A stretch of DNA of 64,000 bases from a virus, in IMG/VR virus record IMGVR_UViG_3300037395_000062, positions 1 to 64,000 of that record; one strand, written 5' to 3'. The translations under genes and the position numbers were made by a program. Under the pieces are notes generated by a model. It was not told the DNA's origin and did no database searches. It saw nothing but the letters and a program-made list of their open reading frames with translations. Shown here in pieces: positions 979 to 61,309 of this stretch (its first letter is position 1; every line of letters starts with the position of its first letter).

Positions 979-1013
979 TAGCCACCGGCAGGAGCCACGT
1001 CAGGCGATAGGCC

Positions 1014-1661
1014 TCATCGATCCGCGGCGCCAGCCACCCTTGCCAATTCGATATCCATTCGCCCCATGTCCAGCACGATCCCATCCATGAAATGACAGTC
1101 GATCGGATCGATCCGCCACTCCCCGAAATGCTTGATGCCCCAGACGTTCGGCACCAGCCACGGAACAGCCGGAACGCACGGCACGATGTCGTCGCCGTGC
1201 CAGTATTCGATACCGTCCAGCCCGGCATCAAGGATCATGGTTTTCAATTGCAACCCGCACGACCAAGGCTTTTCCCAGAGCACCGAACGAGCGAATCTGA
1301 TCCCCTCAAGCAGCGCCAGGCCAGCGATAATCGGCCCCACCCCCGCTGCCCGCGAGTGCGTGGCCATGATGATCGGCAGGTTGCCCAACTTGTCCCCGAT
1401 GACAGCCCATAGCGCCTGTGCACCCGCCAGGAAGCCGTCCTCGCAGATGCCGAGCTGCGGATGCGTGGCGGAGTGCACCCCAATGGCTTTGAAATTGGAC
1501 ACCCACTGGCGCATGTCTTGCGTGCCAGGGATCGCGAGCACGGTGTAGGTCGGATATCGATAGATCACAGCCCGGTCGATGCCTGCCGTATAGACTTCTC
1601 CGTTCGGGGAGGCCGTGTAGGCGTCTTGCACGAGCAGGGAGAGCACTGGATCGGAGATCAC
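1014..1661 (-). CDS. Lipase class 3-like alpha/beta hydrolase
   Basis: LAIPGT, GF, THSRAA (variant of GHSxG), DDIVPCVP, C-terminal His; GTG start overlaps the upstream stop. Confidence 0.7.
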   Translation of the reverse strand: MISDPVLSLLVQDAYTASPNGEVYTAGIDRAVIYRYPTYTVLAIPGTQDMRQWVSNFKAIGVHSATHPQLGICEDGFLAGAQALWAVIGDKLGNLPIIMATHSRAAGVGPIIAGLALLEGIRFARSVLWEKPWSCGLQLKTMILDAGLDGIEYWHGDDIVPCVPAVPWLVPNVWGIKHFGEWRIDPIDCHFMDGIVLDMGRMDIELARVAGAADR

Positions 1662-1891
1662 GGCGTGACGATCCCCGTGACCGGCACTGTCGATGCTGGA
1701 GCCGTGGGTGGCGCGCACTCCGTCTGGTGTCCCTTGTAGCAGAGATACGAGGACGCGAGCGCCGGCAGCACGCCAACTTCAGCGGTGGCGAACCCCAGGC
1801 CAGCACTTATGGCCGGGATCCATGGAGCGAGGGCCGCGCCGCACCCTGATAGGCACAGGGAGGTGACTGTCAGGGTGACGATGCGAGTCAC
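1658..1891 (-). CDS. Small lipoprotein
   Basis: Lipobox LSGC after a hydrophobic stretch; translationally coupled to both neighbours. Confidence 0.55.
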   Translation of the reverse strand: MTRIVTLTVTSLCLSGCGAALAPWIPAISAGLGFATAEVGVLPALASSYLCYKGHQTECAPPTAPASTVPVTGIVTP

Positions 1892-2574
1892 GCCACCGGC
1901 AACAACCACGTAAGCCGATAAGCTTCATCGATCCGGGGCGCGAACCATCCCCGTGTGCTCGGCATCCACTCACCCCATGTTGCTGTCGTGTAGCTGTCCG
2001 CGTCGGGATAGTTGCACGGCGCGATGCAGTGGCCGCCGACGACATCGCCCGCCGGGGCATCGTTCCACGGCGCATCGGGATTCACGTCGTTTTGGTAGAG
2101 CGTGACACCGAGGTAGGCCGCGCCGACTGCATTGATCGCCTCCCTGATCGCCTGATCGTCGGTCGGATCGATCCGCGCGAAGTCCAGCATCAGCCGGGCT
2201 TGTTGGCCCACGTCCAACCCGTGCACCGAAACGTATTCGAGCACATCCAGCATCTCCAGGCCGTCCGTCGCCGCGATGGCTGGCTGCGTGGCCGCGCACC
2301 CGTTGATGGCGGAATACACGCCCAACAGCGCGTCCTCGTTGATCACGAGGTCAAAGCCGTGGAAGGCCATCGCCCAGGCGCGGGCCGCGTTGACCAGCCC
2401 AGCCATAGTACAAGTCGGCAAAGAGAGATTGTAGACCGCTGATGGCGTCCATAGCAGCGGGCGCGGCAGCGTGAGCGGCACTGGAACCGCACCCATGAGA
2501 TGCGGCTTGACCGCAGCGACCCTTTGGGGCCGGTGCGGGAGGCGCCCCATGGGGAGGTTGGAGAAGTCGGGCAT
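1888..2574 (-). CDS. Papain-like cysteine peptidase
   Basis: CTMAG, GGHCI and TWG motifs. Confidence 0.6.
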   Translation of the reverse strand: MPDFSNLPMGRLPHRPQRVAAVKPHLMGAVPVPLTLPRPLLWTPSAVYNLSLPTCTMAGLVNAARAWAMAFHGFDLVINEDALLGVYSAINGCAATQPAIAATDGLEMLDVLEYVSVHGLDVGQQARLMLDFARIDPTDDQAIREAINAVGAAYLGVTLYQNDVNPDAPWNDAPAGDVVGGHCIAPCNYPDADSYTTATWGEWMPSTRGWFAPRIDEAYRLTWLLPVA

Positions 2575-2987
2575 TATTTGGCTCCTGGAGATTGTTGGAT
2601 CACCAGAGGATACCTCTGTCGAACGATCACGTGCGGATAAGTCTCACCCGCGTAATTGAAGGCTGAATCGAGATCTGTGTGAGCGAATCCGGTCACATAG
2701 AAACCAGAGCAAGAATTCCCTCGCGTATCTCCGGATCGATCCCACCAGAAGAAGGCGAGCCACAGCGGAGTGCCCCCGCAGGTCCAGAACACTTTGCCGT
2801 CATATACGTCGGGGTGTTTGCCGTTTCGGAGCAGGCCGCCATCCAGCAAATTGAACCACACATCCGGAAACCCCGGAATGTCACTCTTGCCGGGTTCTCG
2901 CCATTTGCCAGCCTCTTGCAGGTAGTGACCGCCCCTCTCACGATAACCGAAATATAGCGCGCGTTTTGTGGTAGCGATCTGTATCAT
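2574..2987 (-). CDS. Hypothetical protein
   Basis: Coupled ORF in the minus-strand operon. Confidence 0.55.
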   Translation of the reverse strand: MIQIATTKRALYFGYRERGGHYLQEAGKWREPGKSDIPGFPDVWFNLLDGGLLRNGKHPDVYDGKVFWTCGGTPLWLAFFWWDRSGDTRGNSCSGFYVTGFAHTDLDSAFNYAGETYPHVIVRQRYPLVIQQSPGAK

Positions 2988-3007
2988 CGGCGTAGTCGCC
3001 CCAAACG

Positions 3008-3487
3008 CTAGCTAACTCCGGCTGCCAGCAACGCTCGCGCCTGTTTGGCCGTGTAGACCGGAGCGACGGCACCGGGCGCCGCAGCCGACAGCCCAACAGC
3101 CGCCAGCAGCGTCGGTAGCAACGACACCGCAGCATTGATGATCGGCCCGATGGCCGCTGCACCGGGAATGAACGACAGCGCAATCGGCGCCAGCGCCTGA
3201 ACTGTCTGTACGATCTCCTGGACCGTGCTGGTAGGGGTCGTGACGGTCGCTGCGGCGACGGTCTTCGCGTCGGCCTGAATGGTGGTCAGGTAGCCCTGAA
3301 GCTGCGCCACGGTGGCCGCCGGGATGCCTGGAATGGCAGCGATGGCAGCGATTGCCGAGGACAGGCCGGATGCGATCAGGTTGGCATCGGTGGCGATCTG
3401 GGAGACGGTTGGGGCGGTAGCGCTGCATGCCGCAACAGAGACGACAGCGAGTGCCGTGGTGGCGCGCAGGAGGGTTCGGCGGTTCAT
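3008..3487 (-). CDS. Tat-type lipoprotein (envelope/lysis accessory)
   Basis: MNRRTLL twin-arginine motif and VAAC lipobox; AAGGAA SD. Confidence 0.7.
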   Translation of the reverse strand: MNRRTLLRATTALAVVSVAACSATAPTVSQIATDANLIASGLSSAIAAIAAIPGIPAATVAQLQGYLTTIQADAKTVAAATVTTPTSTVQEIVQTVQALAPIALSFIPGAAAIGPIINAAVSLLPTLLAAVGLSAAAPGAVAPVYTAKQARALLAAGVS

Positions 3488-3889
3488 GGTTGGGTTTCCT
3501 TCACGGAAAAAGCAGAGTGGCCACGATCGGAACGACTACCAGAAAGATGATAGGTAAAACAACAATCAGGAATGCCGTTTTGAGTTTCGATAGAAACAGA
3601 CTTTGCACGGAGATTCCTTCAACGGATGATATGCGCGAGATACGCCATCGCCACGATCAGCGCCAAAGCACCGAACAGGACGAAGGCCCGAATCAACGAA
3701 AAAGGAAAAACAGCACGACGAGCAGCAGGATGAACCCGATTGCCGAGGACAGGCCGGATGCGATCAGGTAGGCATCGGTGGCGATCTGGGAGACGGTTGG
3801 GGCGGTAGCGCTGCATGCCGCAACAGAGACGACAGCGAGTGCCGTGGTGGCGCGCAGGAGGGTTCGGCGGTTCATGGTTGGGTTTCCTT
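3349..3889. repeat. 153-bp direct repeat (3349-3501 / 3737-3889, one mismatch)
   Basis: Duplicates the RBS and 5' end of the lipoprotein gene. Confidence 0.9.
3693..3875 (-). CDS. Chimeric short lipoprotein with C-terminal transmembrane segment
   Basis: Same N-terminus as 3008-3487, then GFILLLVVLFFLFR. Confidence 0.45.
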   Translation of the reverse strand: MNRRTLLRATTALAVVSVAACSATAPTVSQIATDAYLIASGLSSAIGFILLLVVLFFLFR

Positions 3890-3920
3890 ACGGGTCAGTG
3901 AAAAACGCCAGCGAGTTGCG

Positions 3921-5000
3921 TTAAGCGGAAGGCGCAGGCGGGGTGCTCATCGGCCCGGTTTGCGCCTGGGTCTCGTTCTTCGCCCGCCGGCATACCTCAT
4001 TGAGAATGCGGCGCTCGGAGAGTTCACAGTCGCTTGCGTTCAACTCTACGCCGATCGCGTGTCGCCCGAGCTTGAGGGCAGATATCGCCGCCGTCCCGGA
4101 GCCAAGGAACGGGTCCAGCACTGTTCCGCCCTCCGGGCACCCGCATACAATGCAGCGCTCCGCCAATTCCGCCGGGAAGGGAGCGCTGTGGTTGTGAGGG
4201 TTGTCCGGTCGCGCTTTGATCGTCCAGATATCTTCTTCGCCGCCCAGGGCATCGCGGTTGAAATAATACCTCGGCTGCTTTGCGAAAATGAACAGGTGCT
4301 CGTACATCCGATGCGGCCGATCGTGGGCAGCCGGCTCGCTCAAACAACCGGGGCGGTACCAGATCACGTCGCTGCGCAGCGTCCAGCCCCTATCCTGCAT
4401 TGCCAACGCTACGCGCCAGGGCAGGCCGATAAGGGACTTCCTTGGCAGCCCCAGCCCAGGGCCATCCACAGCCCGTAGCTGTTGGCGGGCGAACTGTCGC
4501 CCGGAGTGCTTCTTATCCGTGCCGTGCGGCTTCCCCTTCGCATTGTAATAGGCATCGCCGATATTGAGGAAAAACACGCCGTCGTCGGTGAGGACGCGCT
4601 TTACCTCATCGAATGCCGCGACCAACGCCTCAACATATTCTCCAATCGTCGGCTCATGGCCGATCTGGCCTTCCACGCCGTAGTCCCTCTGCCAAAAATA
4701 GGGTGGGGACGTGACCGCGCAGTTGGCGGAGCCGACGGCAAGGGTGCGAAATCCCACGCATACGTCGGCATTGAGGATACGATAGGATAGATTCTCGCCG
4801 ACGTGACCATTACGAGTGGGAATCCCAGATTCGGTGCCCGGACTTCCCGCAGGCGGGGGGCGGGCAGACGACTGCCTGATCACCCTTGTACCCGTGGCAG
4901 ACTTCGCCAAGAACGCCTGGACGGCACTCTCGGAAACCCTGATTAGCCCGCGTTTTCCAGCCTTTGCACATTCCAGATTGCCGTCCTGCATTTTCTTCAC
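3921..5000 (-). CDS. Beta-class N4-C/N6-A DNA methyltransferase with a degenerate N-terminal excisionase-like HTH
   Basis: TSPPY, NIGD, HSAPFP, VLDPFLGSGT motifs. Confidence 0.9.
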   Translation of the reverse strand: MKKMQDGNLECAKAGKRGLIRVSESAVQAFLAKSATGTRVIRQSSARPPPAGSPGTESGIPTRNGHVGENLSYRILNADVCVGFRTLAVGSANCAVTSPPYFWQRDYGVEGQIGHEPTIGEYVEALVAAFDEVKRVLTDDGVFFLNIGDAYYNAKGKPHGTDKKHSGRQFARQQLRAVDGPGLGLPRKSLIGLPWRVALAMQDRGWTLRSDVIWYRPGCLSEPAAHDRPHRMYEHLFIFAKQPRYYFNRDALGGEEDIWTIKARPDNPHNHSAPFPAELAERCIVCGCPEGGTVLDPFLGSGTAAISALKLGRHAIGVELNASDCELSERRILNEVCRRAKNETQAQTGPMSTPPAPSA

Positions 5001-5058
5001 GGCCTAGCCGATCCCTTTCAAGGCGTCGCGTTTCTCGAACATGATTGGTCTCCTTGCG

Positions 5059-5472
5059 TTAAGCGGAAGGCGCAGGCGGGGTCGGTGCCGAGACGATGCC
5101 GGAGATCGGCCTGCTGGTCACGTAGCGCATGATATAGCTGCCCACGAGCGTTCCGAGTAGCGCCGCAGCCCCAGCCACCTCGTTGACGGTATCGGTTGAC
5201 CAGCACGTTGCTGTGACGACGGCGCCGCAAGACAGGCCGTATTTGGTCGCGAGCATGGATACCAGCGCGACAGCCACTGTGCCCCACGGGGACTTGGATG
5301 CGATCAGCGCCTTGGGTGCCAGGTCTGGGTCGAGCACGGAAAGCGCCTTGATAGCCGCTGGCACGTCACTTGCTCCGTTCGCCATAGCGGTTTGCAGGTT
5401 GGCCCTCAGTGTGGTTACCGAGGTGGATGCCTCGATTGCCGTTGCGGCCGTGGTCGGGATGGTTGTGCTCAT
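5059..5472 (-). CDS. Holin-like membrane protein
   Basis: Two hydrophobic helices, SKSPW and RYVTSRPI motifs, position in the lysis module. Confidence 0.5.
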   Translation of the reverse strand: MSTTIPTTAATAIEASTSVTTLRANLQTAMANGASDVPAAIKALSVLDPDLAPKALIASKSPWGTVAVALVSMLATKYGLSCGAVVTATCWSTDTVNEVAGAAALLGTLVGSYIMRYVTSRPISGIVSAPTPPAPSA

Positions 5473-5834
5473 GGTTGCTCTTTCAAGTTTTTTGCGTAAT
5501 CAGCCAGAAACGCCCGATCATCATCTTCGACCCTCTGCTCGGCCCGCTGATCATTTGCAGCCTTCGTCACGCTCCAAGCGGCGTCTACTTTGCGACACAT
5601 CTCATATCCCGGCTTCCATTGATATGTTTCAGGATAGGTAAAATTTGGTTTTTGTTCGCGGTGCATATCGCAGATTGTGATAGCTCGATCGAGTTTCGAG
5701 TCGCCTGATGGAATCCTGGTGTCTATTGTCGGCGGACAGAATCTAATCCAAGGCACACGGGTGCAGTCAACCGTGATTTGTGCGCTGGCCACAGATGGCA
5801 GCATCGCGATTGCAACAATAATCGAGGGTCTCAC
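5469..5834 (-). CDS. Secreted hypothetical protein
   Basis: Signal peptide ending ASA; four Cys. Confidence 0.5.
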   Translation of the reverse strand: MRPSIIVAIAMLPSVASAQITVDCTRVPWIRFCPPTIDTRIPSGDSKLDRAITICDMHREQKPNFTYPETYQWKPGYEMCRKVDAAWSVTKAANDQRAEQRVEDDDRAFLADYAKNLKEQP

Positions 5835-6013
5835 GTCGGTTGCTCCGGTATTGCTGACGCGGCGGCGGCAAGCCGCTTCTCCACCAGCGTCGCGATAGCC
5901 TCACGACAAAACGCAACCCTATCCTCGCCAGGACGAAGGGCGGCGGCAACACTGTCCACCATCTGCTGGTCAACACGGATGTGGAGCACGTGCGGATAAC
6001 GTAGCGGCCTCAT
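5831..6013 (-). CDS. Ribbon-helix-helix-like DNA-binding protein
   Basis: LHIRV beta strand followed by two helices (GEDRVAFCREAI); divergent from the tRNA array. Confidence 0.55.
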   Translation of the reverse strand: MRPLRYPHVLHIRVDQQMVDSVAAALRPGEDRVAFCREAIATLVEKRLAAAASAIPEQPT

Positions 6014-6110
6014 GACGGTCTGTATACCGTGATCCGGACGGGATTGCAATGGTTGGCACCCCGGAACGCAAAAGAGGCCCGACCCTGCGGCCGGACCTAG
6101 AAATTATCGC

Positions 6111-6139
6111 TTGACGCTCAGCCTTAACCTCACTACCGA
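6111..6139 (+). promoter_or_regulatory. Sigma70-like promoter of the tRNA array
   Basis: TTGACG-17bp-TACCGA; predicted start site falls at about ATG 6147. Confidence 0.5.
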
Positions 6140-6146
6140 TAGCGTC

Positions 6147-6245
6147 ATGTTGAAAGAGTCCATACAGAAGCTGTGCGTTTCGAAGCATCTCCGGGAAAAT
6201 TCCGAGACGCAATGCTACGCGCGCGGAGAGGCTCAGTCGGGATAA
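6147..6245 (+). CDS. Putative leader peptide (32 aa) of the tRNA-array attenuator
   Basis: MLKESIQKLCVSKHLRENSETQCYARGEAQSG*; overlaps antiterminator strand 6226-6234. Confidence 0.55.
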   Translation: MLKESIQKLCVSKHLRENSETQCYARGEAQSG

Positions 6246-6282
6246 CGAATCCTGACATCGGCAAGACAGCCGGGAGCCTCTC
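6226..6282 (+). promoter_or_regulatory. Putative antiterminator
   Basis: GAGAGGCTC (6226-6234) pairs perfectly with GAGCCTCTC (6274-6282), which is the left arm of the terminator. Confidence 0.6.
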
Positions 6283-6310
6283 AGAGAAATCTGAGGGGCT
6301 TTTTAGTTTT
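6275..6310 (+). terminator. Intrinsic terminator upstream of the first tRNA
   Basis: 11-bp stem AGCCTCTCAGA/TCTGAGGGGCT, GAAA loop, TTTTAGTTTT tail. Confidence 0.85.
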
Positions 6311-6380
6311 CGTGCCTATCGATCTTTGACAGTAGCATCAGGTCATGACGGCCAACCCCAGCCAAGGGTTGGTGACTAAT

Positions 6381-6452
6381 GGGGTGCCCGCAGGGCCGGT
6401 GCTGTTCCTTGCAAGAACGGTTAGCAGAGTTCGATTCTCTGGCACTCCACCA
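6381..6452 (+). tRNA. tRNA-Ala(TGC)
   Basis: Cloverleaf, loop CT-TGC-AA, CCA end. Confidence 0.85.
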
Positions 6453-6454
6453 AT

Positions 6455-6529
6455 GCGGGCAGTGCGCGACGGGTTGCGTGTCACGTTGCCAACGTGAATC
6501 ATCGAGTTCGACTCTCGATGCCCGCTCCA
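6455..6529 (+). tRNA. tRNA-Gly(GCC)
   Basis: Loop TT-GCC-AA, CCA end. Confidence 0.85.
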
Positions 6530-6536
6530 ATTGCCT

Positions 6537-6611
6537 GGACGAATAGCTCAGTGGTCAGAGCTGGCAGCTCATAACTGTCTGGTCTCGGTTCGATCCCGAG
6601 TTCGTCCACCA
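6537..6611 (+). tRNA. tRNA-CAT (elongator Met or Ile2)
   Basis: Canonical D and T arms, loop CT-CAT-AA. Confidence 0.85.
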
Positions 6612-6614
6612 TGT

Positions 6615-6687
6615 TGCAGGGAGGCCAGGGTGCCCGGCTCGGCTCATAACCGAAGCCTCGGCGGTTCGATTCCGCCCTCTGCAACCA
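6615..6687 (+). tRNA. tRNA-Met(CAT), initiator-like
   Basis: TCGG-CTCATAA-CCGA, CCA end. Confidence 0.75.
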
Positions 6688-6689
6688 AT

Positions 6690-6765
6690 GCCCGGTTAGC
6701 TGATGTGGTCATAGCGGCGGTTTGAAGAACCGTTGAACGTCGTTCGATTCGACGGCCGGGCACCA
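6690..6765 (+). tRNA. tRNA-Phe(GAA)
   Basis: Loop TT-GAA-GA, CCA end. Confidence 0.85.
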
Positions 6766-6769
6766 GTTT

Positions 6770-6844
6770 GCGGCATTCCGTCTCTGGGGAGACGACCAGC
6801 CTTCCAAGCTGAGAAGATGGGTTCGATTCCCATATGCCGCTCCA
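6770..6844 (+). tRNA. tRNA-Gly(TCC)
   Basis: Loop CT-TCC-AA, CCA end. Confidence 0.85.
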
Positions 6845-6849
6845 AGTTT

Positions 6850-6925
6850 TCCCATCGACCGAGCAAGCGAACGGACCTGCCTGTTAAGCAGAGGTCGCCA
6901 GGGGCGGTACCTGGGATGGGAGCCA
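6850..6925 (+). tRNA. tRNA-Asn(GTT)
   Basis: Loop CT-GTT-AA; atypical T loop. Confidence 0.75.
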
Positions 6926-6927
6926 AT

Positions 6928-6995
6928 ACCGGGGCGACGTGGCGTCAACACGGTCTCCAAAACCGTGGATGAGGGTTCAATTCCTTCCTCCGGTG
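6928..6995 (+). tRNA. tRNA-Trp(CCA)
   Basis: Loop CT-CCA-AA; followed by CCG rather than CCA. Confidence 0.75.
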
Positions 6996-7002
6996 CCGGA
7001 AT

Positions 7003-7077
7003 GAAGCGTGAATCCGACGGGTTGGGTGGTGGTCTGCAAAACCACATCACGGGGTTCAACTCCCTGACGCTTCTCCA
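7003..7077 (+). tRNA. tRNA-Cys(GCA)
   Basis: Loop CT-GCA-AA, U73, CCA end. Confidence 0.8.
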
Positions 7078-7110
7078 AGATTGCGACCGCGCTTGCGCGA
7101 CGCTCAGAGT

Positions 7111-7186
7111 GTGGTCGAGGCCAACGAAGTGAGGCGCCCGTCTGTGGAACGGGCCTTACCGGATGCAAGTTCCGGCGATCACCCCA
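7111..7186 (+). tRNA. tRNA-His(GTG)
   Basis: Loop CT-GTG-GA, C73, no encoded G-1. Confidence 0.75.
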
Positions 7187-7191
7187 TTCAT

Positions 7192-7267
7192 GCTCCGGTA
7201 GCACAGAGGAAGTGCAGTCGCCTTGTAAGTGACAGGTCGCGGGTTCGAGTCCTCGCCCGGAGCACCA
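7192..7267 (+). tRNA. tRNA-Thr(TGT)
   Basis: Loop CT-TGT-AA, CCA end. Confidence 0.85.
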
Positions 7268-7271
7268 GTTT

Positions 7272-7345
7272 GGCGGATACCTCCGGCCGAGGGCGGCGCG
7301 TTCTGAGCGCGTTCGAGCAGAGATCGACACTCTGGTCCGCTGCCA
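7272..7345 (+). tRNA. tRNA-Gln(CTG)
   Basis: Loop TT-CTG-AG, CCA end. Confidence 0.7.
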
Positions 7346-7349
7346 CCAT

Positions 7350-7420
7350 GGCGGGAGTTCCGGGAACAGGCGATCTTTTGAGGTTCGCCGCGCGCGGTTC
7401 GACACCGTGGCCCGCTGCCA
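7350..7420 (+). tRNA. tRNA-Gln(TTG)
   Basis: Loop TT-TTG-AG; weak anticodon stem. Confidence 0.65.
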
Positions 7421-7425
7421 GGTAT

Positions 7426-7500
7426 GGCCCTTTCGACCACAGGTTAAGTCGGCGCTCTCTCAAGGCGCAGAACCGGGATTGTTACCCGGAAGGGCCACCA
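7426..7500 (+). tRNA. tRNA-Glu(CTC)
   Basis: Loop CT-CTC-AA; atypical T loop. Confidence 0.75.
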
Positions 7501-7505
7501 ACAAT

Positions 7506-7582
7506 GCGAGCGTCGGCGGATGGCGACGCGGACGCACTTAAAATGCGTCGAATATTGGGTTCGATTCCCAGCGCTCGCACCA
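7506..7582 (+). tRNA. tRNA-Leu(TAA), short variable arm
   Basis: Loop CT-TAA-AA, CCA end. Confidence 0.8.
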
Positions 7583-7583
7583 T

Positions 7584-7660
7584 GCGCGCTTAGCCCAGAG
7601 GTAGGAGGCACGACGTTGAGGTCGTCGGCAGGGCGGGTTCGAATCCCGCAGTGCGCACCA
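7584..7660 (+). tRNA. tRNA-Leu(GAG), short variable arm
   Basis: Loop TT-GAG-GT, CCA end. Confidence 0.85.
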
Positions 7661-7664
7661 GTTT

Positions 7665-7741
7665 GCCCGGTTAGCCCAACGGTAGGAGGCACTTCCCTCA
7701 GGAGGAAGGCAGTGTCGGTTCGAATCCGACACCGGGTACCA
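7665..7741 (+). tRNA. tRNA-Leu(CAG), short variable arm
   Basis: Loop CT-CAG-GA, CCA end. Confidence 0.85.
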
Positions 7742-7743
7742 AT

Positions 7744-7830
7744 GGATGGTCAATTCGGTAGGCGCCGAACACCGCCTGGAAAGCGGTTGGCACCGCAAGG
7801 TGTGGGATTCGAGTTCTCGGCCATCCGCCA
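7744..7830 (+). tRNA. tRNA-Ser(GGA)
   Basis: Long variable arm, G73. Confidence 0.8.
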
Positions 7831-7834
7831 GTTT

Positions 7835-7922
7835 GGAGAGTGAAGCAGGACGGCTCCTGCCACCGGTTTGAAGCCGGATGGTGCCGCAAGGCATGGGCAT
7901 CGACAGCACCCGCTCTCCGCCA
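7835..7922 (+). tRNA. tRNA-Ser(TGA)
   Basis: Long variable arm, G73. Confidence 0.75.
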
Positions 7923-7925
7923 GAT

Positions 7926-8013
7926 GGAAGACGATCCGGGACGGCTCCCGGCATCCGTTCGAAGCGGATTGGAACCGAAAGGTTTGCAGGTCGGCACTAG
8001 CCGTCTTCCGCCA
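7926..8013 (+). tRNA. tRNA-Ser(CGA)
   Basis: Long variable arm, G73. Confidence 0.75.
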
Positions 8014-8018
8014 TTTAT

Positions 8019-8106
8019 GGAGCGCGCAATCGGGTAGGCGCCCGAGCGAGTCTGCTAAACTCTGCGCACCTCACGGTGTAGGTTTCGAATACCTGCCGCT
8101 CCGCCA
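8019..8106 (+). tRNA. tRNA-Ser(GCT)
   Basis: Long variable arm, G73. Confidence 0.8.
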
Positions 8107-8107
8107 C

Positions 8108-8178
8108 GCCTCGCACAGCGGCCTGTGCCCGTCCTTGGTATGGATGGTGGTCCGGATCGTCACCGGAGCGAGGCTCCA
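8108..8178 (+). tRNA. tRNA-Thr(GGT)
   Basis: Acceptor stem GCCTCGC/GCGAGGC, loop TT-GGT-AT. Confidence 0.7.
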
Positions 8179-8183
8179 GTTAC

Positions 8184-8268
8184 GGGCGGGGAAAGCCGAT
8201 GGCTTCGGCAAGCAGACTGTAAATCTGTTTCCTTCGGAAGAGTGGATCGAAACCGCACCCGCCCACCA
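8184..8268 (+). tRNA. tRNA-Tyr(GTA)
   Basis: GCAGA-CTGTAAA-TCTGT, long variable arm. Confidence 0.85.
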
Positions 8269-8269
8269 T

Positions 8270-8345
8270 GGTCCGTTAGCTCAATGGCCAGAGCCTTCGG
8301 TTGATAACCGAAAGACGAGAGGTTCAATTCCTCCACGGACTACCA
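8270..8345 (+). tRNA. tRNA-Ile(GAT)
   Basis: Loop TT-GAT-AA, CCA end. Confidence 0.85.
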
Positions 8346-8351
8346 GTTCAT

Positions 8352-8432
8352 GGACCAGATGCGATCACGGGTGTGCGCGGCGGTCTTTTAAACCGTGTCA
8401 ATGGTTGGGTTCGAGTCCCACCTGGTCCACCA
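8352..8432 (+). tRNA. tRNA-Lys(TTT)
   Basis: Loop CT-TTT-AA, CCA end. Confidence 0.8.
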
Positions 8433-8506
8433 ATTTCGTCCCGTTGATCAGGGGCGAACGTCGCGTTCTGGCATAGGTCCAAAGAGCAGTTGGGCGCGAC
8501 ACAATT

Positions 8507-8580
8507 GCCTGCATCTTTCAGTGGTAGGAAGCTGGATTGTCGATCCGGTAACAGGGGTTCGATCCCCCTTGTAGGCGCCA
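8507..8580 (+). tRNA. tRNA-Asp(GTC)
   Basis: Loop TT-GTC-GA, G73. Confidence 0.85.
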
Positions 8581-8588
8581 AAAAGTTT

Positions 8589-8663
8589 CGGGGTGTGGGT
8601 CAATGGAAGGCCGCCAGTTTTGGGTACTGGAAAATGCAGGTTCGAGTCCTGTCACCCCGACCA
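8589..8663 (+). tRNA. tRNA-Pro(TGG)
   Basis: C1-G72, loop TT-TGG-GT. Confidence 0.9.
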
Positions 8664-8665
8664 CT

Positions 8666-8736
8666 ACCCTCGCCGATGGACGGAACCGGATTTCCTAAAT
8701 CTGGGCATGGCGGTTCGAATCCGTCCGAGGGTGCCA
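8666..8736 (+). tRNA. tRNA-Arg(CCT)
   Basis: Loop TT-CCT-AA, CCA end. Confidence 0.75.
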
Positions 8737-8740
8737 TTTT

Positions 8741-8814
8741 GGACCATGAACATGTTGGCAGTGTGCCGCTCCTACAAAGCGGAAGGCGCGGTTCGATTCC
8801 GTGATGGTCTACCA
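8741..8814 (+). tRNA. tRNA-Val(TAC), C33
   Basis: Loop CC-TAC-AA, CCA end. Confidence 0.75.
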
Positions 8815-8818
8815 GTTT

Positions 8819-8893
8819 CTCCCGTTCGACCACCCGCTAAGTCGCCAGTCCTTCAAACTGGAGAAGCCGGGGCAGCACCGGCACGGGAGACCA
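8819..8893 (+). tRNA. tRNA-Glu(TTC), C33
   Basis: CCAGT-CCTTCAA-ACTGG; atypical T loop. Confidence 0.7.
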
Positions 8894-8898
8894 TTTAT

Positions 8899-8974
8899 GG
8901 GCTAGCAGCACGATTGGACGTGCGCCAGATTACGAATCTGGAGGATGGAGGTTCGAATCCTCTCTGGCTCACCA
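8899..8974 (+). tRNA. tRNA-Arg(ACG)
   Basis: Loop TT-ACG-AA, CCA end. Confidence 0.85.
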
Positions 8975-8980
8975 TTTCAA

Positions 8981-9051
8981 GGTCCGCGCCGCGACGGCAG
9001 GCTGAACTTCTAATTCGGCCGATCTGGGGTAAGCACCTAGGCGGATCACCA
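8981..9051 (+). tRNA. tRNA-Arg(TCT)
   Basis: Loop CT-TCT-AA; reduced D arm and atypical T loop. Confidence 0.65.
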
Positions 9052-9053
9052 AT

Positions 9054-9129
9054 GCTCCCGAGGTGTAAGGGAATGCACGCGTGGTTCCGAACCACGTAGC
9101 TGTAGGTTCGAGTCCTACCGGGAGCGCCA
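9054..9129 (+). tRNA. tRNA-Arg(CCG)
   Basis: Loop TT-CCG-AA, CCA end. Confidence 0.9.
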
Positions 9130-9132
9130 AAT

Positions 9133-9208
9133 GCGCGCGTGGCGAAATGGCAAACGCGTCCGGCTCAAACCCGGATTTCTGTAGGTTCGATCCCTACCGT
9201 GCGCACCA
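9133..9208 (+). tRNA. tRNA-Leu(CAA), short variable arm
   Basis: Leu-type D arm, loop CT-CAA-AC. Confidence 0.85.
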
Positions 9209-9212
9209 CCAT

Positions 9213-9288
9213 GGACCGGTAACTCAGTGGTCAGAGTGCCATCCTCTTAAGTTGGAAGTCGTGGGTTCAACTCCCACCCGGTCCCCCA
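9213..9288 (+). tRNA. tRNA-Lys(CTT)
   Basis: Loop CT-CTT-AA. Confidence 0.85.
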
Positions 9289-9290
9289 AC

Positions 9291-9365
9291 GCTGGCATCT
9301 TCTAGTGGTAGGAAACCGCACTCGTAACGCGGCAACCGGGGTTCGATTCCGCCGTGCCAGCACCA
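9291..9365 (+). tRNA. tRNA-Thr(CGT)
   Basis: Loop CT-CGT-AA, CCA end. Confidence 0.8.
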
Positions 9366-9388
9366 TTATCATCTGCTACAAGGCCATC

Positions 9389-9961
9389 ATGACCAGCGCT
9401 ACTGCTCTCCGCACTCTTGTGCTGAACGCGAACTACCTTCCCATGACGACATGGCCCTTGAGCCTTGTGTCAGGACAGGAAGCAGTGCGCGCAGTGTTTC
9501 GCGGCCGGGCATCCGTAGTCGAAGAGTGGGACGCGGTATTTCGTTCGCCTTCTCGGGAAATTCGGGTTCCAAAAATAATTGCGCTGAACGAGTACGCCCC
9601 GATCAGCGCCTCACCGAAGTTCTGCCGTCGCTCGATCTTGCTGCGCGATCGCTACCGCTGCCAGTATTGCGGCGAGCAGTTTGCCTCAAACGAACTGACC
9701 TTTGACCACGTGATCCCAAAGGCCAAGGGCGGCAAAACCGAGTGGACCAACATCCTTTCGGCCTGCGTCAAGTGCAACACGCTGAAACGCGACAATTCGG
9801 CGAATTGGAGCGGGCGTAAGGGATCCGGCTTGCGTCCGTTAAAGCCGCCGCGTCAGCCCGCCACGATGGAATTGCTTCGGGCTGGGCTGCAATTCCTGGA
9901 TGCCGAAACGCGCGAAAATTATGGTTCGTGGCTGTACTGGTCTTCTGAATTGCAGGCTTAG
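9389..9961 (+). CDS. McrA-like HNH endonuclease (tRNA-array associated)
   Basis: LVLNANYLP, RDRYRCQYCG, LTFDHVIPKAKGG, WTNILSACVKCN. Confidence 0.92.
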   Translation: MTSATALRTLVLNANYLPMTTWPLSLVSGQEAVRAVFRGRASVVEEWDAVFRSPSREIRVPKIIALNEYAPISASPKFCRRSILLRDRYRCQYCGEQFASNELTFDHVIPKAKGGKTEWTNILSACVKCNTLKRDNSANWSGRKGSGLRPLKPPRQPATMELLRAGLQFLDAETRENYGSWLYWSSELQA

Positions 9962-10494
9962 GGTGCAACAAAAGACAACGACAACGCCTCGCAATCCGCC
10001 GCCCGCCGATCCCACCCACGCCCATAAATCCGGAACGTCGGCAGGTCGGCGTAGAACTTATCCCGCAGCAGCCACATCGATCTGATCAAGTCATCCGGCG
10101 CATGCCCCTTGACTACCGCCATGGTCATAGGCCCGAACACCCCATCCGCGACCGCCCCAGCAGCCGTCTGGAGAAACTTGATCGCGTGGGCAGGCGCTGA
10201 CCCCACTGCGGCATCGAACACGCTCACGGCCACGCCTGGAGGCAATTCGTCGCACCGGCAGGCTTGCCAGAACAGCGCGCGATAGAACGGAGTGAAGGCG
10301 GACTGTGGGAGCACTTTGAACGCAGCCAGCGACATGGAGAGTTTGTGCATCGCCAGCCACGCCGTGTAGGTCGCGTACGTCGCGCCCCATGATGTCGCAC
10401 CGCCCGGATCGCGCGGGTCGTCGTGAAATCCCTGTCCGTCATTTTCTGGGCGCCATATGAACGCCAGCGCAGTGGTGAATGGATCAGCGGACAT
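9958..10494 (-). CDS. Endolysin, glycoside hydrolase family 108
   Basis: E...DDPRDPGGATSWG, FDAAV, DGVFGPMT, YGRGW. Confidence 0.88.
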   Translation of the reverse strand: MSADPFTTALAFIWRPENDGQGFHDDPRDPGGATSWGATYATYTAWLAMHKLSMSLAAFKVLPQSAFTPFYRALFWQACRCDELPPGVAVSVFDAAVGSAPAHAIKFLQTAAGAVADGVFGPMTMAVVKGHAPDDLIRSMWLLRDKFYADLPTFRIYGRGWDRRAADCEALSLSFVAP

Positions 10495-10798
10495 TACGAC
10501 CCCCTGGATTTTGCATCGTCGATCACGATCTTCGCCGCAGCGGCCAGTTCAAGCGTGGAGTTTGCCCTACCCGCCGCATCTCCCTGTGCCGTGGCAAGAA
10601 GTGTATTCGTCTCGATCAACTTCTCCGTCTGGCCGTTCACCAGGTCATGCACATTCCGGATGCTTGCCTCGTTCTTGAAGCTCTGTGCGGCGGCTCGCTG
10701 ACTTTGAATCGCCGCACGCTGGCTCTGGATGTAGGTTAGAACCCCAATGGTCTGACCTACGCCGACAAAGAAAAGCGTGCCGATTTCGAAACCGGTCA
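10494..10798 (-). CDS. Single-TM lysis-associated protein (holin-like)
   Basis: N-terminal TM helix, coupled to the endolysin. Confidence 0.5.
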
Positions 10799-10953
10799 TC
10801 CGGGAAACAACCATCGAACCAGCGGTTCAAGGGCCACCACCCCGACTACCACACCAAACAGGAGAGCAGCGCCGACACAGCGCTTCAAATGCCTCTCGTG
10901 GCACCGTGCGCAATGGGTAAGCACGAGACCAACCCATCGGATGACTGAGCGCG

Positions 10954-11202
10954 TCATCGCGTGCTCAGCCATTTCAATATAGGGTCTATCCATCGGCTGA
11001 TAACCGCAACGAGGATGGCCGTGATGATCGTCGAGATCGTGCTCCCGAGAAAGCGCAACCAACCCCTGCGCCGCTCTCGTCGCCCCTCCTCTTCCTCTCT
11101 GCGGTGCCGCCAATAGAGCGCATCATCAGCCCCCCAGCCTGGAATTTCCAATGGATTAACGATGTGGTCACGGTGATGTCCCTCATTTTTATCTTCGGCC
11201 AT
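10954..11202 (-). CDS. Small membrane protein (holin-like)
   Basis: C-terminal TM helix; GGAG SD. Confidence 0.45.
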   Translation of the reverse strand: MAEDKNEGHHRDHIVNPLEIPGWGADDALYWRHRREEEEGRRERRRGWLRFLGSTISTIITAILVAVISRWIDPILKWLSTR

Positions 11203-11338
11203 GTCTCCCCCTGGGGTAAATCACCGTGGTGTAATGGTGACTGTGCCCAGGTTCGGCTGGTCAGTCATGGCGGCTTGCTCCGTCGTGGGTGGGTTCGAGG
11301 TCCGGCCTCGTTGGTAGCGGGGTCGGACTTTGTCGTCA

Positions 11339-13645
11339 TCATTTTGGCGTCCACCACGTAATGGTCACTTCCGCAGCGCCGCCTACACCGCCAGGACCGC
11401 CAGTGCCGCCGCACCCAGCGCCACCACCACCGGCGCCGCCACCTCCTACGCCGCCATTGCCGCCAGTGCCGCCTTGCGTGGTTCCAGCGCCCGCGCCAGA
11501 GCCGCCACCGCCGCCCCAGCCTGCCGCCGCCCAGCCGGTAGCACCGTTACCGCCCGTGGCTCCGCCAGCGCTTCCAGCAGTGGTCGTAATGCCGTTCACC
11601 GACGATACGGCCGAGCCACCAGCTTGGGGCGTTCCGGTCGTGCATCCACCACCAGCGCCGCCGCCGGTAGACGCGCTTACAGATGATGCGCCACCGCCAG
11701 CCGCTCCGACTGCTGACGACCCGCCGCCGCCGCTCGCTCCCATTGGTCCGGTCGCGTTTGACCCTCCGACACCTGTTCCGCCGGCGCCGCCATTGAAGTT
11801 TGCACCACCGCCGCCCGCAGCTCCGGTGGAACTCCCTCCACTGCCGATGTTTCCAGCGCCACCGCCGCCGCCGGAGGCTAGCGCCGCCGCGCCACCCGCG
11901 CCACCACCGCCAGCGTAGGCGATCATGTTGTTATCAAGGCCGGTGATCCCAAAAAATGCAGTCCCGCCAACCGACCCATTTGCGCCAGCCGCCGCCGTGC
12001 ACGGGGCATTGATCGTTATTGATGCCACACCAGATGTCATCGACGCTGGGATCGGAGCAGGCGTCAGCTTTACGCCGCCGCCGCCGCCGCCGCCGCCGCC
12101 GGAACCCGACACGCCGCCCGTCAAAGATGGACCACCGCCGCCGCAGCCGCCCTGGCCCCGTGCCGCGACCGTGAATACCGACCCAATCGGGGGCGGCCAG
12201 TAATAAGTCCCGGCCCCTGTAAAGGTGATCTGCCCGCTGGATGGCACGCCGTCGCTGATTGCAAGCGAACCGACATTCGAGCCTCCAGCCGATGCGAAAA
12301 ACTGCGCCAGCGTCATATCCATAACGGCCAGCTTCGTCACAAAGCCGCCCGTTGAAACCGACGTAGCATTGCTCGCCGCGCTGTAGGAAAAATAGATCTT
12401 GCCGCCGACTTCGACCCACCATGGGTCAGCGATCTGACCGACTCCCGTGTTGACCCCCTCATCAGAAGTCAGTCGGGCAAAAAACGGGGTCGTTTTAACA
12501 GGCGTCCACGCCGTGGCATTGAGTGTCGGCGCGCTGAACAAGTAAATGTCTTCTGGCACTGCACCGGACGTGCCAAGCGTGCCATTTGTGGTGGTGGCGT
12601 GCGCGCCGATATACCATAGGCCATTGGTAAAATAGGGAGATGTCGGCCCACCGATCGCTGCGTTTCCAACAGTGCCGCCGCCCCCGGCCGAGCTTATGAC
12701 TGGGTTGCTGACAGGTTGCGAGACGGTGGACATATCGGTCGACGTGAAGAGACCGATCCCTCCGATCCCGCCAACGCTGTTCTGGTAGCCTTCCATGAAG
12801 ATATAGGCAGTGCCGCCGACGAAAATCATCGACGTGTTAGTGACGTTTGTTGCGTCCCAAGTCGCACCGCCGCCCGGCGTGATGAACGCACTCTTCAAGA
12901 CGGAATAGTTACCATAGGCGTTCGCTGATGACAGGAGATCGATCTGCGTCCACCCGGTATTTGCCGCGAGCAGGTAGTAGGCGGTTCCCGTCACGGCCAG
13001 CGGGCCAGAGACTCCGGGGGAACCGCTTAAGGTATAGGTCCCCCCCGCACCGGTTCCACTTACTCTCGCCGTGATATAGTAGGTATTCGAAGTGATCCCG
13101 GTTCCGTTGATATATTGGCCGTTTGTCCATTGCCCCGTGACGGTCCCAGCCACCGTCAGCGTAGAACCGCTGATCGTGCACGCGGAGCACGTCGCGGTAT
13201 TGAGGGTGACAGAAGATGACCGATAGCCCGTGGCGATCGTCGCCGCTGCCTTGTAGGGCCAATGGATACCGTCAGTGCTTTCGAGATATTCCAGGCTTGG
13301 CGTTCCCGGTCCGGCCGTGCCGATCAAGTGCCAGCATGATGTGAATTGCGCGGGGACAAGATTGCAGCTTGTGTCCGGCGCCAGGATCGTTGCCTCTGCG
13401 ACCAACCCTCCCGCCGATCCCATCTCGTATGGCAGCGTCGGGGAATTGATGACGCCCTGGCGCTGGATCACTCCCTTGACCGGAGGCGGTCCCGCATCCC
13501 CCAACTGCCCAGCCGAGTTGAACCAGGCTGCGTCGCCGGGGGTGCCGGTGGGCAGGGGCGGCGGCGTATACCCACTTCCCTGCTGCGCCTGGGCGACGCC
13601 GCAGACGAGAAGAAAGAACGCTGCGAAGATCCTGATGGTGTTCAT
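11339..13645 (-). CDS. Signal-peptide-bearing protein with a glycoside-hydrolase-like beta-propeller and polyglycine-rich C-terminus (adhesin/fibre-like)
   Basis: MNTIRIFAAFFLLVCGVAQA signal; WD and IADPW propeller motifs; Gly-rich tail. Confidence 0.7.
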   Translation of the reverse strand: MNTIRIFAAFFLLVCGVAQAQQGSGYTPPPLPTGTPGDAAWFNSAGQLGDAGPPPVKGVIQRQGVINSPTLPYEMGSAGGLVAEATILAPDTSCNLVPAQFTSCWHLIGTAGPGTPSLEYLESTDGIHWPYKAAATIATGYRSSSVTLNTATCSACTISGSTLTVAGTVTGQWTNGQYINGTGITSNTYYITARVSGTGAGGTYTLSGSPGVSGPLAVTGTAYYLLAANTGWTQIDLLSSANAYGNYSVLKSAFITPGGGATWDATNVTNTSMIFVGGTAYIFMEGYQNSVGGIGGIGLFTSTDMSTVSQPVSNPVISSAGGGGTVGNAAIGGPTSPYFTNGLWYIGAHATTTNGTLGTSGAVPEDIYLFSAPTLNATAWTPVKTTPFFARLTSDEGVNTGVGQIADPWWVEVGGKIYFSYSAASNATSVSTGGFVTKLAVMDMTLAQFFASAGGSNVGSLAISDGVPSSGQITFTGAGTYYWPPPIGSVFTVAARGQGGCGGGGPSLTGGVSGSGGGGGGGGGVKLTPAPIPASMTSGVASITINAPCTAAAGANGSVGGTAFFGITGLDNNMIAYAGGGGAGGAAALASGGGGGAGNIGSGGSSTGAAGGGGANFNGGAGGTGVGGSNATGPMGASGGGGSSAVGAAGGGASSVSASTGGGAGGGCTTGTPQAGGSAVSSVNGITTTAGSAGGATGGNGATGWAAAGWGGGGGSGAGAGTTQGGTGGNGGVGGGGAGGGGAGCGGTGGPGGVGGAAEVTITWWTPK

Positions 13646-13653
13646 ACCGGACC

Positions 13654-14163
13654 TCAATTCGAGATCGAGAGAGTAGTGCCGAGCGGCGAATAGAATGACG
13701 GCACCGCCGCACTTCCAGTGATGTTCTTGGTGTCAGATGCTCCGGCCGCCAGCAGCTCACCGCCCGATGTCGCCGAACACGTGTTGGCCAACCAGCAGAC
13801 GTAGGTCGGGTTCATGCCGGTATTCAGCGCGAACAGCCGCGCGAAGGCGCCCGCCGCCGGGATCGAGCCCGCACTGATGGTGACGTTGGCGGTGATGAGC
13901 GTCGTGCTCGTCGCCGCTGCCAGTGTCATGGTGCCTTGGTAGGTCGTGGCTGGTGTAGTGACCGGAAATTGCGTTCCGCTCGGTACGGTCACGGGAACCG
14001 GCAACGGTACCTTCGGGTTGGCACCCTTCGGGATCGGCCCTGACGGTTCCGTGATCTGAATGCCGTTGTTCGGGTCGTACACGCCGGAATTCTGGGCATG
14101 CGCAGCATGCGATGTCACGGTTCCGGCCAGAAGCAGGAAGATTATGGCTAAGGTGCGCATCAT
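13654..14163 (-). CDS. Signal-peptide-bearing beta-rich protein
   Basis: MMRTLAIIFLLLAG...AHA signal; ATGA overlap with the upstream gene. Confidence 0.65.
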   Translation of the reverse strand: MMRTLAIIFLLLAGTVTSHAAHAQNSGVYDPNNGIQITEPSGPIPKGANPKVPLPVPVTVPSGTQFPVTTPATTYQGTMTLAAATSTTLITANVTISAGSIPAAGAFARLFALNTGMNPTYVCWLANTCSATSGGELLAAGASDTKNITGSAAVPSFYSPLGTTLSISN

Positions 14164-15410
14164 TGGATCACTCGAATGTTGTAGACCGAGATTGTCGGTG
14201 TTGCTGCGACGGCAGCGCACACCTTGACGGTCACGTTTCCAGCCGACGAAACATAAGCCGTCCAATAGATGCCATCGCCCGGATAGGTAACGGGACTTGC
14301 GGCCGCAACCATGGCTGTGGTGGCGTTTGGCACAGATTGTGTTGCCGATGCACACGCACCAGCAGCGAGCGCACTTCCGCCGATGTTGTTAGTCGTGCTT
14401 GTCAAAGCAAGCGCGATTGTCCCCGTCTGCGCGGGCAATATCCAGTTGTAGTTTGACGCCACTGCTGGTGGCTGGAGTTCCCCTGCCCCAGAGGTGGCGC
14501 CCGCCATTTGGATGTTCCCGGCATTCTGCCCCGCCTGGCCAAGCGTGATCAAGCCGTTGCTACTAGCCCGGATTATGTTGTTATTGCTGGAATTGATCAG
14601 TTGCAGCATCACGCTGCCGCTGCTGTTCGGCGATACGATGTGCACCTGATCGGTAGACACGCCAACACCGCCCACGAACAGATTCCCGGCCGTCGAAATG
14701 GAACCGTTTGGATCGCTATTCTGTAGACAATAATCGTTCGCGGGAGGCGACCCTGTGCCGCCGATCGCGGAACAATGATACGCTGTCCAGTCAGTCACGG
14801 AACCAGCCGCGCTGTTGTTGTTCACAAGCAGTGCGTTGAACCCGAGCACATTCCCCATAATGCCGGTCGGGTAATTGGTGCTGGCTGCTAGATATTGGGT
14901 GAAATTAGCGACCGTGCCAACATTTCCGAAGCTGGCTTCAAAGTCCTCATTGCCTCCGGCCTGGCTGTTGCATCCGGATTGGCACGTGTAGAACGCGTGG
15001 ATCACATTGACTTCGCTGTTGTCGATCCCCGGCCCATTCATGAACACCTGAGAGTTCATGTTTTCCCAGTAATTGGACGTATTCGTCGATGGGTTGAGCG
15101 TCACATAGAACTGATTCTGGCGATTGTCGGATGCAGCTGTGGCCAAATCAACCGCGCCCGTGAATTGTATGGCCGGCATCCCGTTCACCGGCAGCGCAAA
15201 CGTCGATCCGCCGATCTGATACCCTGTCGAGGCCGTGGTATTGATCCCGCCGCTATCGACAATACCGACCGTTGTCAGTTGTCCGGTCAGCGTGCCGCCG
15301 GCCAGCGGCAGATACGCGACGCTGCCGCTGGATCCGCCGGTCACCTGATCGGCGTTGGACGCGGATGCCGCGACGATGAGCAGCAGTGCCAGGAGAAGAC
15401 GACGCATCAT
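14160..15410 (-). CDS. Signal-peptide-bearing tail fibre-like protein
   Basis: MMRRLLLALLLIVAASASNA signal; YLPLAGGTLTG fibre motif. Confidence 0.7.
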   Translation of the reverse strand: MMRRLLLALLLIVAASASNADQVTGGSSGSVAYLPLAGGTLTGQLTTVGIVDSGGINTTASTGYQIGGSTFALPVNGMPAIQFTGAVDLATAASDNRQNQFYVTLNPSTNTSNYWENMNSQVFMNGPGIDNSEVNVIHAFYTCQSGCNSQAGGNEDFEASFGNVGTVANFTQYLAASTNYPTGIMGNVLGFNALLVNNNSAAGSVTDWTAYHCSAIGGTGSPPANDYCLQNSDPNGSISTAGNLFVGGVGVSTDQVHIVSPNSSGSVMLQLINSSNNNIIRASSNGLITLGQAGQNAGNIQMAGATSGAGELQPPAVASNYNWILPAQTGTIALALTSTTNNIGGSALAAGACASATQSVPNATTAMVAAASPVTYPGDGIYWTAYVSSAGNVTVKVCAAVAATPTISVYNIRVIQ

Positions 15411-15411
15411 G

Positions 15412-15912
15412 CTACTGCACCTGGCCGCTGAAGAATGCCGTGGCGGACGCGGTTTTTGTGAAGCATCCTGTCGAGCTGAACACTGTGGTTATGCCTGCCG
15501 AGAATAGCCAAGCAGCGGCACCCGGATCAGGAGACAGTCCGATCGTCTGGTTGGCGGGGACGTACAGGCATTTGACTGGCAAAACACTGCCATCGGACGG
15601 CGGCGTGGTTGCGTTGAACACCATCAGGTAGCCAGGCGTGGCACCGCTGGTCACGGCAAAGCCCAGGGCGAGACCTGCGGACGCTTTGAATACGTGGCTG
15701 GATTCGACGGACGTTGACACGATCGGTGTCGTCGAACTGTAGGCGAGCGAGGCTGGAAACGGGTTTACCGTCGAGAACTGATTGCCTTGATAGTCGGCAA
15801 CTCCAGCCATAAGGCCCGGCCATATGGGATAGCTCGTGGCCTTCGCTCCGGCGATGAACAGCAGGATCGCCGCCACCGTCCTCAACGCAACGCTTTTCGT
15901 TCGATCCGTCAC
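15412..15912 (-). CDS. Signal-peptide-bearing small beta-sandwich protein
   Basis: Hydrophobic N-terminus ending AKA; GYLMVFNATT motif. Confidence 0.65.
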   Translation of the reverse strand: MTDRTKSVALRTVAAILLFIAGAKATSYPIWPGLMAGVADYQGNQFSTVNPFPASLAYSSTTPIVSTSVESSHVFKASAGLALGFAVTSGATPGYLMVFNATTPPSDGSVLPVKCLYVPANQTIGLSPDPGAAAWLFSAGITTVFSSTGCFTKTASATAFFSGQVQ

Positions 15913-15922
15913 CTGCCGCCTC

Positions 15923-60833: not shown

Positions 60834-60892
60834 CTGTTGACAAACACATATAGCGATGCTGTTGTGCCGCTATAGCAACCGGAGTAGCCGAC

Positions 60893-61249: not shown

Positions 61250-61309
61250 ATATTTGACAAACACATATAGCGACGCCACGTAGCCGCTATCGCAACCGGA
61301 GTAACCGAC

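Follow-up and report, generated by a model that had tools for sequence, protein, structure and literature searches.

Leader-peptide attenuators of amino-acid operons, such as trpL, hisL, leuL, pheL and thrL of E. coli, consist of a short ORF in the 5' leader followed by an intrinsic terminator whose 5' arm can pair instead with an upstream antiterminator strand. The position of the ribosome chooses between the two folds, and a ribosome at the stop codon of the leader favours termination. Other short uORFs lack amino-acid-specific codon runs and change downstream expression by re-folding the leader according to their translation status, as is the case with E. coli toiL (PMC12121999), the B. subtilis vmlR leader (PMC9226507) and the S. 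meliloti DUF1127 uORF attenuator (PMC12218461), the latter from an alphaproteobacterium; it has been proposed that they monitor ribosome availability or stalling at many positions. They control a toxin-antitoxin pair, an ABCF resistance factor and a small DUF1127 protein, respectively. Accessory tRNA genes can also respond to translation, since the long tRNA array (trn operon) of Anabaena sp. PCC 7120, with some 26 genes on a megaplasmid, is kept low and is induced when translation is impaired (PMC8421152), through direct repeats at its promoter that are bound by the repressor TrcR (PMC10272220). Here we describe a predicted ribosome-operated switch in front of a phage tRNA array; our full-text literature searches found no attenuator described for tRNA genes or for phage tRNA arrays.

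The window analysed comprises the first 64,000 nucleotides of a 94,109-bp uncultured virus record (IMG/VR IMGVR_UViG_3300037395_000062), with about 60% G+C and sheath, capsid, portal and terminase genes. The locus lies in a divergent intergenic region. To the left, a minus-strand operon runs away from it, with a small ORF of 60-72 aa, a 121-aa secreted protein, a 137-aa protein and a 359-aa N6/N4 DNA methyltransferase (3921-5000). To the right, on the plus strand, are the tRNA array (6381-9365), an HNH endonuclease gene (9368-9961) and a GH108 endolysin gene. Between them we find a promoter P1, with -35 TTGACG (6111-6116), a 17-nt spacer and -10 TACCGA (6134-6139), ending 7 nt before ATG 6147, so that the predicted start site is at or within about 1 nt of A6147. 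A simple sigma-70 scan did not call this promoter because its -10 is weak, but the upstream genes are on the minus strand and the transcript would have to start here. The ATG opens a leader ORF of 32 sense codons without a Shine-Dalgarno sequence, ending at TAA 6243-6245. Inside it, GAGAGGCTC at 6226-6234 (region 2) ends 9 nt before the stop codon and is perfectly complementary to GAGCCTCTC at 6274-6282, in the 5' arm (region 3, 6274-6285) of an intrinsic terminator whose 3' arm is region 4 (6290-6301). The terminator scan gives 6272-6303, with 14 pairs, a GAAA loop and a TTTTTAGTTTT tail, the T-run continuing to about 6310, and the hairpin energy is about -20 to -21 kcal/mol. Two inner hairpins complete the antiterminator domain, at 6236-6256, with the stop codon in its loop, and at 6258-6273. 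On the minus strand, just upstream of the -35, there is a terminator-like hairpin (6075-6098; 10 pairs, tail CTTTTGCGTT) that keeps P = 0.98 in its native context; it may insulate the divergent operon or form part of its 5' UTR, and is a neighbour of the switch rather than a proven part of it. A single ATAGCG half-site overlaps the P1 start region at 6139-6144. Two near-identical promoter-like regions elsewhere in the window (60837-60885 and 61254-61302) carry TTGACA followed by the palindrome ATAGCG-N12-CGCTAT, a likely operator, for which the small divergent ORF at 5831-6049 is a candidate binder, although its product, possibly a DNA-binding protein, matches no family.

The observation made in the preliminary description of this locus is therefore confirmed, except that it placed the start of the terminator at 6275, off by one, and counted 36 tRNAs. 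We detected 22 tRNA genes by strict ARAGORN and 29 in 6381-9365 with relaxed settings (28 of them with a clear 3-letter anticodon), plus one further Rfam hit at 6770-6841. The leader matches no Rfam 15 family, including T-box riboswitches (no hit in 6050-6380 at E <= 1, with only tRNA hits downstream), and a word search found no homologue of the leader peptide. A BLAST of the leader against the rest of the genome returned many copies of CCTGCGACCGGACCT at 73,823-74,125, outside the window, with spacings that are multiples of 12 nt, probably a gene for a repeat-containing protein.

The competing helix is more than chance. The minimum-free-energy fold contains the region 2:3 helix (z = -4.47), and a perfect complement of 9 nt or more to the left arm appears in only 23 of 5000 dinucleotide shuffles (0.46%) of the upstream 125 nt. 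The equilibrium probability of the terminator is 0.30 in the native transcript against a mean of 0.99 in 300 shuffles, none of which is as low. Other clean terminators in this phage and a relative keep P >= 0.9 in their native context, against 0.09 here, making this the only one masked by its own upstream sequence. In contrast, the proposal that the ORF is a "codon sampler" is not supported. Although it uses 24 distinct codons for 16 amino acids, as the preliminary description stated, 21% of 32-codon windows in the phage's own genes have 24 or more distinct codons and 17% have 16 or more amino acids. Codon usage lies within 1 SD of genes, with a GC3 of 0.69, which supports neither a rare-codon role nor the remark that some codons look AT-rich for this genome. 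Codons readable by the array's tRNAs amount to 66%, against 72 +/- 9.5% in gene windows, so that the ORF is, if anything, slightly less matched to the array than ordinary genes.

The preliminary description had set as a test whether related islands with a tRNA array and an HNH gene share this layout with divergent peptides, and we found that they do. Neighbouring proteins were of no use as handles: the 121-aa secreted protein has one 50% relative on a 1.1-kb contig, a 772-aa protein has none, and relatives of the methyltransferase are not syntenic. GenBank phages share only single tRNAs with the array, and the closest complete relative (105.7 kb; TerL 61%) lacks the whole island of about 15 kb (about 1000-16300 of the window) that carries the methyltransferase operon, switch, array, HNH and lysis genes, having in its place about 440 nt and only one tRNA gene, for tRNA-Met. 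The HNH gene led first to one IMG/VR contig with a homologous array in the same gene order and then, used as an alignment, to soil and peat metagenome loci (80 kept of 307 relatives found) and two alphaproteobacterial MAG contigs. The homologous arrays keep the same gene order in the relatives. The HNH gene sits at the 3' end of the array in many lineages, at 57-79% identity, and may act as a homing endonuclease that spreads the array, as SegB does in the T4 tRNA region (cited in PMC8421152). Direct inspection of the upstream regions, together with a covariance model built from six leaders, identified the same module directly upstream of the array in 14 further phage or prophage lineages, 15 in total. 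Related arrays in three lineages, designated L051, L053 and L097, do without it. The two MAG lineages, L128 (Aliidongia sp., 189-kb contig) and L129 (697-kb contig), point to alphaproteobacterial hosts and possibly to prophage or island copies. The size of the methyltransferase, similar to that of alphaproteobacterial CcrM-type enzymes, is consistent with such hosts.

All 15 lineages have a -35 of the form T[TG]GAC[GAT] (TTGCGT in one), 16-18 nt, TAnnnn and then 6-10 nt to an ATG, although the -10 hexamers share only TA. None has a usable Shine-Dalgarno, there being only a GGAG inside the -10 of one lineage. This is the signature of a leaderless mRNA, and the leaderless start put forward in the preliminary description is thus supported by conservation. 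The ORF ranges from 15 to 68 codons, yet its stop always lies 28-38 nt before the terminator stem, in or beside the loop of a small hairpin, and varies among TAA, TAG and TGA at one aligned place. Over 359 codons in ten lineages frame 0 has no stop, while the other two frames have 13 and 9; the combined chance of staying open is 10^-5.35, before counting the 1-in-3 chance of being in frame. The peptides are unrelated and mostly unalignable, close variants differ by non-synonymous changes, and the one alignable pair gives a dN/dS of about 0.5-0.7 with differences spread evenly over codon positions, as expected if the act of translation matters rather than the peptide.

In transcripts cut off before the 3' arm of the terminator, the 5' arm pairs with a segment inside the ORF that ends 7-13 nt before the stop in ten lineages, and 2-25 nt before it in full-length folds of the whole set. 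This pairing exceeds shuffled controls in 13 of 15 lineages, the prediction being weak in L104 and in L093 with its long start; the lineages are related by descent, so that these statistics are not fully independent. Across ten lineages 84 region-3 nucleotides take part in both helices, and the three strands change together between lineages. RNAalifold on MAFFT alignments of all lineages gave no consensus because the helices slide between lineages, and we relied instead on per-lineage folds and a sequence-only alignment of six lineages. In the latter, 91.4% of antiterminator cells are paired and 7 of 14 pairs changed on both sides, with a covariation score of 0.405 against 0.231 that was reached by 0 of 500 shuffles, while slid controls reach only 37-60% paired. 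The second inner hairpin is 93% paired, with 3 of 5 pairs changed on both sides, and the terminator is 87% paired. Equilibrium terminator probability, however, is not a conserved signal. It is low in only 4 of 10 lineages, whereas the terminator dominates in 5 of 10 (P >= 0.9) and a sixth (L069) is at 0.69, so that the antiterminator must win kinetically there.

Taken together, these results suggest that region 6111-6310 is a ribosome-operated transcription attenuator at the head of the tRNA-array transcription unit, a reading to which we assign a probability of about 0.65. In this view, the transcript would start at a host-type promoter at or next to AUG 6147 and the ORF would be translated as a leaderless mRNA. 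The antiterminator could form first, so that untranslated or slowly translated leader RNA would let RNA polymerase read on, past the downstream box described below and into the tRNA genes. A ribosome that keeps pace and reaches the stop codon would be too far from the terminator to block it directly, but close enough to cover or to have just unwound region 2; the terminator would then form and transcription would end near 6305. The output would be negative feedback of translational capacity on tRNA synthesis. Our computations establish the sequence elements, their non-random complementarity, and their conservation and covariation in the lineages compared; in contrast, the start site, translation of the ORF, termination and its dependence on translation, the direction of the switch, and the idea that the signal is ribosome progress in general rather than one particular codon are inferred from geometry and comparison. 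The interpretation offered in the preliminary description is thus partly supported: its attenuator is well supported by comparative evidence, its codon sampler is not supported, and neither is its trp-like geometry, since pairing of region 2 with upstream sequence does not exceed shuffles in any of ten lineages. No conserved 1:2 helix, pause hairpin or regulatory codon run was found, and the switch appears to have two states.

The link to the array rests on the orientation of the upstream genes and on the absence, in the window, of any consensus promoter between the terminator and the first tRNA, P1 being the only promoter-like site upstream of the array. The TTGACA at 6326-6331, which the preliminary description singled out as a possible downstream promoter, has no usable -10 and lies inside a box (GATCTTTGACAGT, 6321-6333) that starts 11 nt after the T-run. 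The box recurs as G[TC]TCTTTGA[AC] in L084, L053, L057, L050 and L104, and as GGTCTTTGAAG in L082. By sequence likeness only, and in about half the lineages, it resembles the gammaproteobacterial boxA consensus GYTCTTTAANA (PMC5725501) and TTATTTGACATTG in the rrn leader of an alphaproteobacterial MAG that carries a related array (L220, about 1338-1352), although the bare motif occurs at chance frequency genome-wide. If it were a NusB/NusE loading site, it could protect the long untranslated tRNA transcript from Rho. We initially read this box as a second promoter, but dropped that reading for about half the lineages because in several of them the supposed -10 abuts the first tRNA, because in L053 a plain promoter sits 18 nt upstream of the box, and because of the resemblance to boxA. 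The arrangement in L053 suggests that the module is a regulatory insert between promoter and array. A hairpin insertion of about 30 nt (6349-6378) separates the box from the first tRNA in the window; it is absent from L084 and has a counterpart in L053. In the other half of the lineages (L059, L060, the L070 group, L080, L093, L051, L069, L128 and L129) the spacer has a different conserved box (GGTGGAAGCCCCGG..., about GGTG[GC]AAG[CT]CCCGG.TCGA[AG]CGCC) that could be a degenerate tRNA piece, a processing site or a promoter. In L104 a protein-coding ORF of about 70 codons with a strong Shine-Dalgarno (about 3100-3350) lies between the switch and the array, so that the switch can also precede a protein gene.

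The main rival reading, although much less likely, is that the module is a separate transcription unit, either a short structured RNA of about 160 nt or a small peptide gene, ending at its own terminator, with the array transcribed from its own promoter and the alternative pairing only shaping the mature small RNA. The full-length RNA does fold very stably with its 5' and 3' ends paired, some relatives have promoter-like hexamer pairs in the spacer (e.g., TTGAAG-N17-GATAAT in L059), and attenuator-derived RNAs and leader peptides can act in trans in an alphaproteobacterium (PMC6614838, PMC7968998). However, a plain terminator has no need for a conserved, covarying competitor helix, the peptides are not conserved, and the module is always directly upstream of an array on the same strand, the covariance model having found it nowhere else in the loci. 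In several relatives transcription from the supposed promoter would start inside the first tRNA. An internal promoter cannot be excluded, and would make the switch only a modulator. It is less likely still that the switch is set by a protein, a tRNA or a small ligand (riboswitch-, T-box- or PyrR/TRAP-like) and that the ORF is incidental. The antiterminator domain is a conserved three-way structure, and a conserved U-R-R triplet in a hairpin loop could be an RNA contact rather than a stop codon. Yet, besides the absence of Rfam matches, an incidental ORF would not keep an ATG 6-10 nt after the -10 in 15 of 15 lineages, nor stay open and in frame over 45-204 nt of unalignable sequence; the aligned triplet is always a stop and never TGG, and the sequences inside the domain are poorly conserved. 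A classical amino-acid- or codon-specific attenuator is improbable. Trp is present in 9 of the 13 leader peptides inspected, with a W-[HY] motif at codon 9-10 in four lineages, but the excess is weak, as we estimate that about 40-47% of such peptides would carry a Trp by chance; the window's own peptide has none, no codon run exists in any lineage, and the cargo is a near-complete tRNA set rather than one pathway. Finally, a chance ORF and a chance complementarity next to an ordinary terminator, although GC-rich DNA has long open frames and many short complementarities, are all but ruled out by the shuffle tests, the comparison with other terminators, the covariation, the frame-specific absence of stops and the promoter-ATG spacing.

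Phage tRNA arrays are usually discussed as codon-usage helpers or as spares against tRNA-cutting defences, and how their expression is controlled is largely unknown. A conserved, leaderless, ribosome-operated attenuator would show that tRNA supply can be placed under direct feedback from translation itself, a control logic known until now for amino-acid operons and a few stress genes. It would also provide a compact element of about 200 nt with 15 natural variants and clear mutational predictions, and suggests that the array, the switch and the putative homing endonuclease travel together as a mobile cassette. A more speculative and doubtful possibility, in line with the counter-defence role imagined in the preliminary description, is that the module is a general gauge of decoding speed that lets a phage switch on a near-complete replacement tRNA set whenever host tRNAs are depleted or cut, for example by starvation, anticodon-nuclease defences or phage-induced tRNA decay. 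It would then be an inducible counter-defence that moves with the array and its HNH endonuclease among phages and prophages of soil Alphaproteobacteria.

Compared with the attenuators of amino-acid operons, the module has the short leader ORF, the intrinsic terminator before the presumed regulated genes and the mutually exclusive antiterminator placed so that a ribosome at the end of the ORF would mask it, but it fails two defining features of that family, the codon runs and the 1:2 hairpin. In the absence of the latter, untranslated RNA should read through rather than super-attenuate. Also, the predicted ORF is leaderless, region 2 lies inside it, and the cargo is a set of phage tRNA genes rather than biosynthetic enzymes. 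With rRNA-operon leaders, with their boxB hairpin, boxA and boxC (PMC5725501), it shares a hairpin followed within about 20 nt by a GYTCTTT(A/G)A-type box at the head of a long untranslated stable-RNA operon, although here the hairpin is a full intrinsic terminator with a T-run and a competing antiterminator, and the likeness of the box to boxA is one of sequence only and holds for about half the lineages. In structural terms it is nearer to the uORFs that sense general translation stress, having a uORF without specific codon runs whose occupancy would re-fold the leader. However, toiL acts through RBS occlusion and Rho and not through an intrinsic terminator, the toiL and DUF1127 uORFs are described with ribosome-binding sites, and neither these two nor vmlR controls tRNA genes or is phage-borne. 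The nearest biological precedent is the Anabaena array, for which no leader, attenuator or terminator is mentioned (PMC8421152) and which is bacterial and controlled at its promoter by a repressor, but whose induction when translation is impaired follows the same physiological logic as that proposed here.
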